Positions 21,780-61,765 of a DNA stretch of 64,000 nucleotides are shown here, one piece after another. The position numbers were made by a program, and so were the translations under genes. How positions within the stretch are numbered: position 1 is the stretch's first letter; the number at the start of each line of letters is the position of its first letter. The notes beneath the pieces are model-generated. The model did no database searches. It was not told where the DNA came from and saw nothing but the letters and a program-made list of their open reading frames with translations. The DNA is from Escherichia phage MN01: sequence record MT129652.1; one strand, 5' to 3'.

Positions 21780-21826
21780 GTTTACAACCAGATTAAGATA
21801 AGACATAATGATTCCATACTGAGTTA
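21780..21826 (+). promoter_or_regulatory. early promoter plus conserved leader cassette
   Basis: GTTTAC -35, 18 nt spacer, CATAAT -10, then GATTCCATACTGAGTTA leader also found at 59998, 60885 and 61413. Confidence 0.6.
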
Positions 21827-21848
21827 ACAAACAAACCTGGAGTTTAAA

Positions 21849-22130
21849 ATGAACAAATCAACTTTCCTTCTGAACACCTTTAAAAAATTGGAAATTGAAG
21901 TTATTGCATTGGTCAACAAATACCCAAATGGTGTTAATGGTAATGCTCTGAACAAACTAGTTAAAAAATATGAAAACTTAGCATATGACACTGATTTCTG
22001 GTGGAATGGTAATTATTCTACTCACACTAAAGATAAAAATGGTAACTGGTTGAAACTTCAAGAAAACAATGTTAACTTCAGAGACCTCATCAAGCGCCGG
22101 GTAGAAGTTCATTTAAATGGTATGGTATGA
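21849..22130 (+). CDS. hypothetical early protein in the 23/24 intergenic slot
   Basis: 93 aa ORF with own promoter cassette and RBS; no recognisable nuclease motifs. Confidence 0.5.
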   Translation: MNKSTFLLNTFKKLEIEVIALVNKYPNGVNGNALNKLVKKYENLAYDTDFWWNGNYSTHTKDKNGNWLKLQENNVNFRDLIKRRVEVHLNGMV

Positions 22131-58240: not shown

Positions 58241-58316
58241 GGCCCTGTAGCTCAATTGGTTAGAGCATCCGGCTCATAACTGGCAGGTTTCCGGTTCAAG
58301 TCCGGATGGGGCCACC
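58241..58316 (+). tRNA. tRNA with CAU anticodon (Ile-lysidine type or Met)
   Basis: Cloverleaf by eye: acceptor GGCCCTG/TGGGGCC, D-arm GCTC-AATTGGTTA-GAGC, T-arm TCCGG-TTCAAGT-CCGGA, anticodon loop CTCATAA; anticodon stem imperfect. Confidence 0.6.
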
Positions 58317-58393
58317 CGGGGTGTAGCTCAATTGTATAGAGCAACGGTCTTCTAAACCGTAGGTTGTGGGTTAGAATCCCACCACCCCGACCA
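58317..58393 (+). tRNA. tRNA-Arg (UCU)
   Basis: Cloverleaf by eye: acceptor CGGGGTG/CACCCCG, anticodon arm ACGGT-CTTCTAA-ACCGT, T-arm GTGGG-TTAGAAT-CCCAC, encoded CCA. Confidence 0.8.
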
Positions 58394-59358: not shown

Positions 59359-59913
59359 ATGAAACTGTTAAAATATTTGAGTTGGATTCTGTTAGTTCCA
59401 CTGGATTTTATCTCCATGATTCTGGCCGTTATCCTGGCACCATTTGTAGTCCCATTCCATAATAAAAAGACTGGTAAACTTCCGTTCGGGTTTGATTGGA
59501 TGATGACTTATGATAATCCGATTGATGGCGACCGGGGTCATGTCAAACGTTGGTCAAAAATCCGAAAATGGCCATTAGGTGTTTACTTCCAACGAGTAGC
59601 TTGGCTCTGGCGAAACAAAGCATACAATTTTGCTTACCACAAGCTCGGTCGTGATTGCAATTCAGAATTCCATTATAAAGGCAATCCTGATGTTGAATCC
59701 GGCTCCCCGGATAAAGCTCATCACGGATGGCTCTGGATGTGGACGGATAATGCCTGGGGTGTTTTTGCTTCTGTTCCTTATCTTAAGGTCGGTGGAATCA
59801 CCTTTTATCTGCGCGTTTATTGTGGCTGGAAGCTCAAGAGTCTTCTGTCCCGACCAATCCCTAAGGCTATGCTCGCCTTTCATATAAATCCGTTCCGCTT
59901 TTATAAGAACTAA
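59359..59913 (+). CDS. membrane-anchored hypothetical protein (N-terminal hydrophobic helix, Trp-rich domain)
   Basis: 184 aa ORF bracketed by two terminators. Confidence 0.5.
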   Translation: MKLLKYLSWILLVPLDFISMILAVILAPFVVPFHNKKTGKLPFGFDWMMTYDNPIDGDRGHVKRWSKIRKWPLGVYFQRVAWLWRNKAYNFAYHKLGRDCNSEFHYKGNPDVESGSPDKAHHGWLWMWTDNAWGVFASVPYLKVGGITFYLRVYCGWKLKSLLSRPIPKAMLAFHINPFRFYKN

Positions 59914-59937
59914 CAGCCCGCATTGCGGGCTTTTTTA
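59914..59937 (+). terminator. rho-independent terminator
   Basis: GCCCGC-ATTG-CGGGC hairpin followed by TTTTTT. Confidence 0.7.
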
Positions 59938-59973: not shown

Positions 59974-60020
59974 GTGTACATCCAGATTGACTGGATGCAT
60001 AATGATTCCATACTGAGTTA
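59974..60020 (+). promoter_or_regulatory. early promoter with spacer stem-loop plus conserved leader
   Basis: GTGTAC -35, CATCCAG...CTGGATG hairpin in the spacer, CATAAT -10, GATTCCATACTGAGTTA leader. Confidence 0.6.
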
Positions 60021-60054
60021 CACACTGAATCAAACAAAACTTTGGAGAAATAAA

Positions 60055-60480
60055 ATGAACTTCCTGACCCTGACTTCTGCATTCTCTGTTACCCGCATCA
60101 CTAACAAAATGGTTGCCGACGAAGTATGTGAAATCTGCATTCGTGAAGATGCACTTATTCATCTGACTTCAACCCAGATTGTTGCCATCGCCAAGTCCCT
60201 TAATTCTGAACTGAAGGTAAACACCAAACAGTCAAAAGAATCTATCATTGAATTAATCCAAGCTGAAATGATTGAATTCCCAATTGAAGAAGTTAAAGAA
60301 GAAAAAATCCAGTCCAAATCTGGTAATGCTCGTGACATTTGCTTCCAGGCATTTGCAGAAATTGATATGGCAGATGGTGCAGCTCGTCGCGCCCTGATTG
60401 ATGTTCTGGTTAACACCCATGATATCAAAAAGACTGTTGTTCAGTCATATGCTTCCAACTTCCGCAAAGCTCAAAAATAA
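60055..60480 (+). CDS. hypothetical early protein sharing a C-terminal module with the ORF at 60933
   Basis: 141 aa; C-terminal motif DGAARRALIDVLV...VQSYASNFRK. Confidence 0.5.
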   Translation: MNFLTLTSAFSVTRITNKMVADEVCEICIREDALIHLTSTQIVAIAKSLNSELKVNTKQSKESIIELIQAEMIEFPIEEVKEEKIQSKSGNARDICFQAFAEIDMADGAARRALIDVLVNTHDIKKTVVQSYASNFRKAQK

Positions 60481-60491
60481 TTGAGAAAAGT

Positions 60492-60540
60492 GTTTTACTT
60501 CCAGGTGGGATAATGTATAATTATCCCATACTGAGTTACC
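60492..60540 (+). promoter_or_regulatory. early promoter with stem-loop (PeSL-like)
   Basis: GTTTTAC -35, TATAAT at 60516-60521 inside GGGATAA...TTATCCC, leader ATACTGAGTTACC. Confidence 0.6.
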
Positions 60541-60562
60541 AAATAAAACACTGGAGAATAAA

Positions 60563-60859
60563 ATGTTTAACGCACCGGCATGGCACGCTACCCAAGCTCA
60601 AGAAGAAAACAAAGCAATCATTTCTGCTAAAATTGAAGCTCAACTGAATGAATTGTGCGAAACTGCTTCTGAAGAAGTTGTTGCAATCATCAAACAGTAT
60701 CCTGCATCCAACTATTCCCTGGCATGCATCAAAACAGAAATGGTTAACTTGTGGCGCAAGAATAAGAAAACTTTCTTAGGTATGCAGTACCAGGCAATCG
60801 CGTCTGCGGTAGTAAACATGTATGACTTTGAAGTTTATTTCCCAACTTCTGAAAATTAA
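60563..60859 (+). CDS. hypothetical early protein
   Basis: 98 aa ORF with own promoter cassette and GGAG RBS. Confidence 0.5.
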   Translation: MFNAPAWHATQAQEENKAIISAKIEAQLNELCETASEEVVAIIKQYPASNYSLACIKTEMVNLWRKNKKTFLGMQYQAIASAVVNMYDFEVYFPTSEN

Positions 60860-60860
60860 T

Positions 60861-60907
60861 GTTTACTTTGGAATTTAACTAAGACATAATGATTCCATAC
60901 TGAGTTA
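60861..60907 (+). promoter_or_regulatory. early promoter plus conserved leader
   Basis: GTTTAC -35, 18 nt spacer, CATAAT at 60885-60890, GATTCCATACTGAGTTACC leader. Confidence 0.6.
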
Positions 60908-60932
60908 CCAAATAAACAAACGGGATAATAAA

Positions 60933-61376
60933 ATGAAAACTTCAAAACTGGTTAAGTACGTTAAACTGGCATTAAACAACTCTTCTGAAGCTGAAGCACA
61001 ATCCGCAGCGCGTATGTTCTTCAAACGTCTGACAGCTGAAGGTATTTCATTTAACCCGGCAGTATTTGGTATCACTCGTGGCGAAGCTGCTAAACTGGCA
61101 ACTCTGGCAGGTAAAATTTTTAAAGGTCTGAATGATGGACAGGTTAAACCAGAAGTTAAACCTACTCCTAAAGCTGAACCAAAAGCTGAACGTAAGGCAC
61201 CTAAACGCTCCGGTATGAGCAACAAAGATTTATGCTATGATATGTTCAAAACTGTTAATATGTCTAATGGTGCTGCTCGCAGAGCTGTTATTGATATGAT
61301 TGTGCGTGAGTTTGGATTCAACAAAGCATCAGTTCAGTCTTATGCTTCCAACTTCCGCAAAGAATTTGAAATTTAA
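60933..61376 (+). CDS. hypothetical early protein, Lys/Ala-rich linker, shared C-terminal module
   Basis: 147 aa; C-terminal motif NGAARRAVIDMIV...VQSYASNFRK paralogous to the ORF at 60055. Confidence 0.5.
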   Translation: MKTSKLVKYVKLALNNSSEAEAQSAARMFFKRLTAEGISFNPAVFGITRGEAAKLATLAGKIFKGLNDGQVKPEVKPTPKAEPKAERKAPKRSGMSNKDLCYDMFKTVNMSNGAARRAVIDMIVREFGFNKASVQSYASNFRKEFEI

Positions 61377-61384
61377 TTCAAAAA

Positions 61385-61435
61385 GGGGGTATACAAGCCC
61401 CCTGCTTTAAGGCATAATGATTCCATACTGAGTTA
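61385..61435 (+). promoter_or_regulatory. stem-loop plus early promoter plus conserved leader (PeSL-like)
   Basis: GGGGGTATACAAGCCCCC hairpin containing a GTATAC -35-like element, CATAAT at 61413-61418, GATTCCATACTGAGTTACC leader. Confidence 0.55.
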
Positions 61436-61459
61436 CCAAATAAAACACTGGAGAATAAA

Positions 61460-61765
61460 ATGAAATTCATCATCAACCTGGCGCTTGTTGACTTTGATAA
61501 AACTGGTAATTTCGCATCTGCTGAAAATATGATTCGTAACACCAAGTTTAAAGTGCAAGTCCAACAGGCGGTAGCAAAAGAGTTCTTTACTGATAAATTA
61601 ACTAACGTTGTTAATCACCTGAATGTGCAAGTTAAATTCACTCGTGAAGCGGAAACTACTGTTGCATTTGATTTTGACTGCCAATACCATGATGAATATG
61701 TTCGCCGCATCCTGGATATTGTGTCTGATGAACTTTACTATGGTGTGCAGGAAAACAAAATCTAA
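61460..61765 (+). CDS. hypothetical early protein
   Basis: 101 aa ORF downstream of promoter cassette. Confidence 0.5.
   Translation: MKFIINLALVDFDKTGNFASAENMIRNTKFKVQVQQAVAKEFFTDKLTNVVNHLNVQVKFTREAETTVAFDFDCQYHDEYVRRILDIVSDELYYGVQENKI

Follow-up and report, generated by a model that had tools for sequence, protein, structure and literature searches.

Two neighboring genes of Escherichia phage MN01, here called A and B, encode proteins that end in the same small domain. The window analyzed in this study is a 64-kb stretch of this phage's genome (MT129652.1); coordinates are positions in that window unless another record is named, and the features described between 59915 and 61459 lie on the + strand. 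Open reading frame (ORF) A (60055-60480) encodes an acidic protein of 141 amino acids (aa; isoelectric point (pI) 5.7), while ORF B (60933-61376) encodes a strongly basic protein of 147 aa (net charge +13, pI 10.0). The C-terminal domain (the module) that they share represents a small family that is new, and its predicted fold is a common one, similar to that of homeodomains. Comparison of the sequences indicates that A and B are old paralogs whose duplication predates the spread of the pair among the lineages that now carry it, and it is a new finding here that unrelated virulent phages have conserved the two genes as a pair, side by side or close to it. We tentatively propose that the module is a nucleic acid-binding helix-turn-helix domain.

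An earlier note on this DNA, made from the letters of the sequence, had placed the two ORFs at these positions and claimed that they share a C-terminal module of approximately 45 aa behind unrelated N-terminal regions. Both ORFs lie where they were placed, and the module is real: BLASTP with composition-based statistics aligned A with B at 32 of 73 positions (44% identity, E-value: 1e-18). The length requires a slight correction, as the module spans approximately 52 aa (residues ~90-141 of A and ~95-147 of B). When either module was used as a tblastn query across the whole window, the sole match was the other copy (E-value: about 1e-15). The N-terminal parts, in contrast, gave no matches in tblastn across the window, and their predicted structures are likewise unrelated. 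An explanation of the A/B similarity by low complexity was ruled out by the composition-based BLASTP statistics and by the content of the conserved core (the C..F pattern of helix 1, IDM, RR..ID and VQSYASNFRK), which is not of low complexity.

Structures of both proteins were modeled with AlphaFold2, which was fed with alignments of the family; the mean predicted local distance difference test (pLDDT) score was 83.6 for A and 75.5 for B. The N-terminal domain of A (aa 1-78, 60055-60288) is predicted to form three short strands followed by a helix, an extended loop and a helix (pLDDT 76-93), with helices at residues 31-36, 39-49 and 61-74; the loop sequence S.N.EL.VN.KQSK is nearly invariant in the family alignments. 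A linker predicted to be disordered (aa 79-90, 60289-60324; pLDDT <50 at residues 84-89) leads to the module (aa 91-141, 60325-60477), in which helices are predicted at residues 92-100, 108-122 and 126-140 and the invariant residues are C96, F100, R112 and V128-K138 (VVQSYASNFRK). The N-terminal domain of B (aa 1-68, 60933-61136) is predicted to be all-helical (residues 3-15, 19-36 and 49-58). It is followed by the Lys/Pro/Ala-rich linker that the earlier note had pointed out (aa 69-95, 61137-61217), which has a net charge of +5 and is predicted to be disordered (pLDDT <50, with a disordered stretch at residues 70-91), and then by the module (aa 96-147, 61218-61373; pLDDT 87-91), with predicted helices at residues 97-105, 113-127 and 131-145 and with C101, F105, R116/R117 and V134-K143 (VQSYASNFRK) invariant.

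In both models the module is a confident three-helix bundle (pLDDT 84-91). Alignment of 16 diverse family members showed the C, F and R residues and VQSY.SN.RK to be invariant, with helix 3 reading VQSYASN(F/Y)RK. The ten consecutive conserved residues of this helix include exposed polar ones (Q, S, S, N, R and K), such that its buried and exposed faces are both nearly invariant. A short basic stretch lies ahead of helix 1; the net charge of the module ranges from +1 to +4, while that of the N-terminal domain of A is -4. Because the module is also found alone, as proteins of 69-74 aa, it is predicted to be a separately folding domain. The predicted fold of a standalone 74-aa protein superposes on the module at 0.9 Å over 51 columns, and that of a standalone 71-aa protein superposes likewise.

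The module is predicted to adopt a three-helix fold with helix-turn-helix geometry. In a fold search with the A and B models, homeodomain-like and BEN domains superposed over 47-54 residues at a root-mean-square deviation (rmsd) of 1.6-2.0 Å (for example, engrailed, 1du0, and Bsg25A/Elba, 4x0g), and further matches included Oct-1 POU-HD, MATalpha2, BEND6, BANP and MogR. The leading low-rmsd matches of both modules are DNA-bound domains, while RecX repeats and some unrelated helical proteins matched at similar Z. A viral structure library returned matches to members of the family only. The module resembles homeodomain and BEN domains in having three helices and a similar size, in the placement, by a weak profile alignment, of a V, an aromatic residue, an N and an R on helix 3 and in the basic stretch before helix 1. 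It differs from them in that its helix 2 is longer, its net charge is much lower, it belongs to a bacteriophage protein and it shows no significant sequence relationship to either family. No significant sequence-profile match to homeodomains was obtained with Pfam, hhalign or a profile search of PDB sequences; for BEN, neither a sequence-profile match nor the full BEN helical domain (about 90-110 aa) was found. Based on these models, the module is homeodomain/BEN-like in its predicted fold, yet it is not callable as a member of either family.

Sequence databases gave no family for the module, to which the earlier note could assign none either. Pfam contained nothing significant for A, B or 31 family members scanned singly (with no homeodomain match at E ≤ 5), and NCBIfam contained nothing significant for the family, its candidates CT847 effector and LIC10729 falling far under their cut-offs. 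The Pfam family PBP_like (PF12727) appeared below threshold over the module in 10 of the 31 members and was rejected as the alignment falls on an unrelated part of the periplasmic-binding fold. When the module profile was compared with PDB sequences, TAL effectors appeared with E-values down to 1e-15. These values are sums over 11-23 repeats, each scoring between -3 and +4 bits with a per-repeat E-value above 300, and TAL effectors consist of tandem 34-aa repeats, in contrast to the single-copy module; they were rejected. The next match was homeodomain 2da3 (E-value: 0.017).

In PHROGs, A matches phrog_9997 over its full length (E-value: 1.7e-70; residues 1-141 on profile positions 3-143 of 145), as B does phrog_18416 (E-value: 9.3e-93; residues 1-147 on positions 1-147 of 147). 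Through the module, each protein also cross-matches the PHROG of the other and the 71-aa phrog_17275. PHROGs keeps these as three separate families, all labeled "unknown function"; the link through the module, the pairing of the genes and the fold are added here. Deposited annotations of both ORFs read "hypothetical protein" apart from two automated GenBank labels, in one record each: "rho-N domain-containing protein" for A and "H15 domain-containing protein" for B. The latter suggests linker histone H1/H5, but Pfam gives no match to the winged-helix H15 domain, and the similarity lies in the Lys/Pro/Ala linker of B, which is predicted to be disordered; this resemblance is one of composition and the candidate was rejected.

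The N-terminal domains are likewise without a clear relative. The helix-loop-helix of A resembles a HeH/SAP/Rho-N motif, and this domain had no match in Pfam or PDB sequences. The motif LALNNSSEGEA..AAR.FF of B resembles DUF2786 (PF10979), a family with no known function that was matched below the Pfam cut-off by two of 11 B-type members (best E-value: 0.043) and not by B of the window itself. No PDB sequence matched the N-terminal domain of B, and its match to T7 Gp2 (E-value: 0.88) is not significant. A role as capsid-targeted internal proteins was considered, since relatives have genes for internal head proteins upstream, and was dropped because both genes have early promoters. Neither N-terminus resembles the T4 capsid-targeting sequence, and this was also counted against a capsid role.

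Family membership was determined using full-length searches and an exhaustive profile search. In the latter, HMMER was used to compare the module profile with 1.84 billion representative proteins and gave 15 matches at E ≤ 0.001. The two weakest (P0036 and P0037) are long repeat proteins and were rejected as summed weak repeats, like the TAL effectors, which leaves 13 true members. The 13 comprise A-type proteins, B-type proteins, divergent B-like proteins (P0026 and P0032), a B-type protein with an insertion (P0031, 198 aa) and standalone modules of 69 and 74 aa (P0030 and P0035). Among 50,697 phage records compared by tblastn, 45 contain the module; they come from phages of Escherichia, Shigella, Yersinia, Morganella, Providencia, Acinetobacter and Erwinia. 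The pattern VQSYASN[FY]R was absent from 185,579 bacterial and archaeal genomes (one per species); the module seems to be confined to virulent phages. Full-text literature searches for the PHROG identifiers and locus tags returned no paper, and the papers found that mention Gaprivervirus do not treat these genes.

The two genes are found together in several lineages. Orthologues of A with 93-100% identity are carried by phages SP18, VR7 and VR26. In VR26, A directly adjoins B, while in the window, as in VR20 and VR25, they are separated by a 98-aa gene with a promoter cassette on either side. The order in Morganella phage MP1 is B, one gene, A, while Erwinia phage RF1 and two viral contigs of ~45 kb have A then B. 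In one of these contigs (L011), the pair is opposite in strand to its neighbors, which encode a terminase, a thymidylate kinase-like protein, an Rz-like spanin, a RusA-like protein and an HNH protein. The ~45-kb lineage is not T4-like, since this terminase is similar to that of Yersinia phage PY100 (52% identity). A metagenomic T4-like contig has the order DUF7338, A, B, as in the window, and a further contig has the divergent B-like variant after an A-type gene. In phages of Acinetobacter, only A is present. In RF1, an HNH endonuclease gene (L003, 2127-2630) separates the A-type and B-type genes and resembles a homing endonuclease inserted as a free-standing gene.

A third, standalone copy of the module (71 aa, phrog_17275, VR7ORF277c-like) is located just downstream of gene 52 in VR26 (L015, 3948-4163) and at the same locus in VR20 and VR25 (L016 and L017); this locus is not within the 64-kb window. 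In VR26, it is preceded by a terminator/promoter cassette nearly the same as the one before A. Two members of the pair are damaged in relatives of the window: the A orthologue of Yersinia phage P8 (L001, 4755-5180) is interrupted in frame by a stop at codon 41, its annotation showing two short ORFs, and the B orthologue of VR7 (L004, 3103-3309) is cut to the 68-aa N-terminal domain, without linker or module. Because of these two cases, both A and B are evidently losable or truncatable in nature.

Over 47 ungapped residues, the module of A in the window is 64-68% identical to the modules of the A-type proteins of RF1 and the ~45-kb contigs, and only 51% identical to that of B in the same genome. 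It is because A-type modules are closer to each other across phages than to the B of their own genome that the duplication is judged to be old. The earlier note had read the arrangement as domain shuffling of a common module onto different targeting regions. This reading holds insofar as the module is predicted to fold separately, also occurs standalone and is found behind at least two unrelated N-terminal domains; no shuffling event is visible in the phage, and a recent one is contradicted by the age of the two architectures, which are kept in several lineages with A-types alike across phages.

One feature of the genes themselves appears to favor a recent event. The stretches encoding VQSYASNFRK at the 3' end of the modules in A (60439-60469) and B (61332-61362) are identical at 30 of 31 nucleotides (nt), and the region carries repeated cassettes of a kind prone to recombination (PMC4122927), such that the module could have been copied onto a second gene in this phage lineage by cassette-mediated recombination. 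Outside this stretch, the agreement ends: the 108 nt of module DNA upstream of it are only about 50% identical between A and B. In other phages, the same ten codons of A and B are 73-77% identical, and under a null based on the codon usage of the window, at least nine of ten identical codons for identical residues are expected with P about 1e-3 (a post hoc test). The stretch is better explained by gene conversion, and the simplest reading of the sequences suggests a short conversion tract in the Gaprivervirus lineage. Both full architectures are present in MP1, RF1, the ~45-kb contigs and other T4-like contigs, and A-type modules from different phages cluster together instead of joining the B of their own genome. 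Recent shuffling is, in our judgment, very improbable.

With regard to function, we tentatively favor, at somewhat below an even chance, a module that is a homeodomain/BEN-like helix-turn-helix domain binding nucleic acid via helix 3, which would make A and B an early nucleic acid-binding pair. Helix 3, VQSYASN(F/Y)RK, would contact the nucleic acid; a short basic arm lies before helix 1. A second contact would be provided in A by the helix-loop-helix with its conserved lysines and in B by the Lys/Pro/Ala-rich tail and the helical domain. Early in infection, the two proteins may bind DNA, be it that of the host nucleoid or that of the phage, and contribute to host takeover or to the handling of the phage genome. 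Nucleic acid binding is suggested because the top low-rmsd folds are DNA-bound, helix 3 is conserved with its exposed polar residues, the sequence ahead of helix 1 is basic and B has a histone tail-like linker and a net charge of +13. Also counted in its favor are the paralogy of the module, the standalone proteins with the same predicted fold, the match to homeodomain 2da3, the conservation of the pair, the old duplication and the early promoter cassettes.

Several observations weigh against this proposal. Pfam, NCBIfam and hhalign gave no significant sequence match to any DNA-binding family. When the module profile was compared by hhalign with six homeodomains (their sequences entered by hand), the match was not significant (probability 4.4%, P = 0.009); the same weak alignment does place the V, Y, N and R of the module on homeodomain V45, W48, N51 and R53, which is the register predicted by the fold match. 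At +1 to +4, the charge of the module falls well short of the basic charge usual in homeodomains, and protein A is acidic (pI 5.7) with an N-terminal domain of net charge -4. The Rho-N/HeH reading of that domain was not confirmed, as its profile, compared directly with the N-terminus of E. coli Rho, failed to match (probability 0.2%). Three-helix bundles are promiscuous in fold searches, and we infer the nucleic acid-binding role from fold and conservation. The T4 early protein AsiA has a helix-turn-helix-like fold, yet it binds a protein (sigma-70) and not DNA.

Helix 3 might instead dock on one conserved host protein, such as RNA polymerase or sigma, Rho, RecA or a nucleoid protein, with the different N-terminal domains bringing different activities to this target; this is the idea of a common interaction module put forward by the earlier note. 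A single target would fit a helix that is invariant across phages of Escherichia, Yersinia, Erwinia, Morganella, Providencia and Acinetobacter and in all paralogs, and a protein partner would suit a module that is mildly basic and an A that is acidic. The pair is also portable across unrelated phages and, in the ~45-kb phages, opposite in strand to its neighbors, as is often the case with accessory host-targeting genes. Set against this are the low-rmsd fold matches to DNA-bound domains and the histone tail-like Lys/Pro/Ala composition of the B linker; overall, we consider protein docking rather unlikely. The module could also serve oligomerization, with A, B and the 71-aa paralog forming homo- or hetero-oligomers and the N-terminal domains carrying the function. 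In this case, one could account for the co-occurrence of A and B, adjacent in several lineages, for the acidic character of one and the basic character of the other and for helix 3, in which the choice of F or Y agrees between A and B of one genome in most pairs. However, Acinetobacter phages have A alone, VR7 retains just the N-terminal domain of B, and it is unusual for a self-association surface to keep ten residues in a row, exposed polar ones among them, invariant across distant lineages. We regard oligomerization as the module's role as quite improbable.

Whether the module is taken to bind nucleic acid or protein, a wider reading can be offered: A, B and the 71-aa paralog may be a portable host-takeover or anti-defense set in which the shared domain, with its invariant helix, locks on a single conserved target in Gammaproteobacteria, either a host protein or a specific nucleic acid structure. 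We consider this unlikely as a whole. If true, the N-terminal domains would deliver different activities to one target, and the joint movement of A and B between unrelated virulent phages and their absence from bacterial genomes would be accounted for. Most early genes of T4-type variable regions have no known function, and three "unknown function" PHROGs are linked here by one small domain with a predicted fold. If the module targets a conserved host machine, it would add a new tool to those that phages use for host takeover; plain DNA binding would make it one more small helix-turn-helix family.

The 3.2 kb around the gene pair is 93-98% identical to T4-like phages of the genus Gaprivervirus, including SP18, VR20, VR25, VR26 and Yersinia phage P8. 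The window belongs to this genus, close to SP18, VR20 and VR25. A and B lie in a variable region of the T4-type genome, between the tRNA genes and the block of e.x and lysozyme (gene e). Upstream of the pair, the tRNA cluster is marked by a tRNA-Met gene (CAT, 58241-58316) adjoining a tRNA-Arg gene (TCT, 58317-58393). The gene preceding A (59359-59913) encodes a 184-aa protein that is full-length DUF7338 (Pfam E-value: 1.6e-62; phrog_2143). It is labeled "holin" in one related record, and the family assignment gives no support to this label. Between A and B is the 98-aa gene (60563-60859; phrog_27242, "unknown function"). It is missing in VR26, where the A-B gap is ~86 nt, and because of this absence it is not considered part of the pair. 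The next gene downstream of B starts at 61460.

Separate early cassettes precede A and B, as the earlier note had proposed, and it is predicted from these elements that each gene is transcribed from its own sigma-70-type early promoter. The 55-nt promoter/leader cassette occurs in four copies, before A, the 98-aa gene, B and the next downstream gene. Its 14-nt core, CCATACTGAGTTAC, is present in four exact copies and, with one mismatch allowed, in a fifth at 21814, compared with 0.04 expected in shuffled sequence. The fifth cassette copy (21780-21852), far from the 60-kb cluster, precedes another small ORF (GTTTAC ... CATAATGATTCCATACTGAGTTAA ... GGAG ... ATG). A terminator-like stem-loop (59915-59931, AGCCCGCATTGCGGGCT followed by a T run) ends the DUF7338 gene and opens the cassette before A (59975-60054), which consists of TGTACA, a 17-nt spacer and CATAAT (59975-60003), the core leader sequence at 60008-60021 and GGAG at 60044-60047. 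The cassette of the 98-aa gene (60494-60562) has TTTACT and TATAAT separated by 16 nt (hexamers 60494-60521), and that of B (60862-60932) has TTTACT and CATAAT separated by 17 nt (60862-60890). The cassette of the next gene (61384-61459) has TATACA and CATAAT separated by 17 nt (61390-61418) and includes a GC-rich stem-loop (61384-61403, AGGGGGTATACAAGCCCCCT) located directly 3' of the B stop codon and overlapping the -35 region. As the + strand has no T run here, this element may be a cassette stem-loop rather than a strong terminator.

Two known systems are comparable to the arrangement described here. T4 MotB is described as a protein with non-specific DNA binding that acts with H-NS (PMC7827196). 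Like A and B, MotB and Ndd of T4 are small proteins expressed from early promoters in T4-type variable regions; no sequence relationship to A or B was found, the module being present, by tblastn of the phage records, in phages of Gaprivervirus, Morganella, Providencia, Acinetobacter and Erwinia only, and the analogy is one of context and not of structure. The cassettes, in turn, match the promoter-early stem-loop (PeSL) terminator/promoter elements described for T4-type variable regions (PMC2839356, PMC4122927). While cassettes of this type do not account for the origin of a module shared inside coding sequences, they do account for gain and loss of whole genes: repeated terminator/promoter/leader cassettes bound each gene here, and the cassette-bounded 98-aa gene that separates A from B in the window and is missing in VR26 is an indel of the kind described for PeSL elements.

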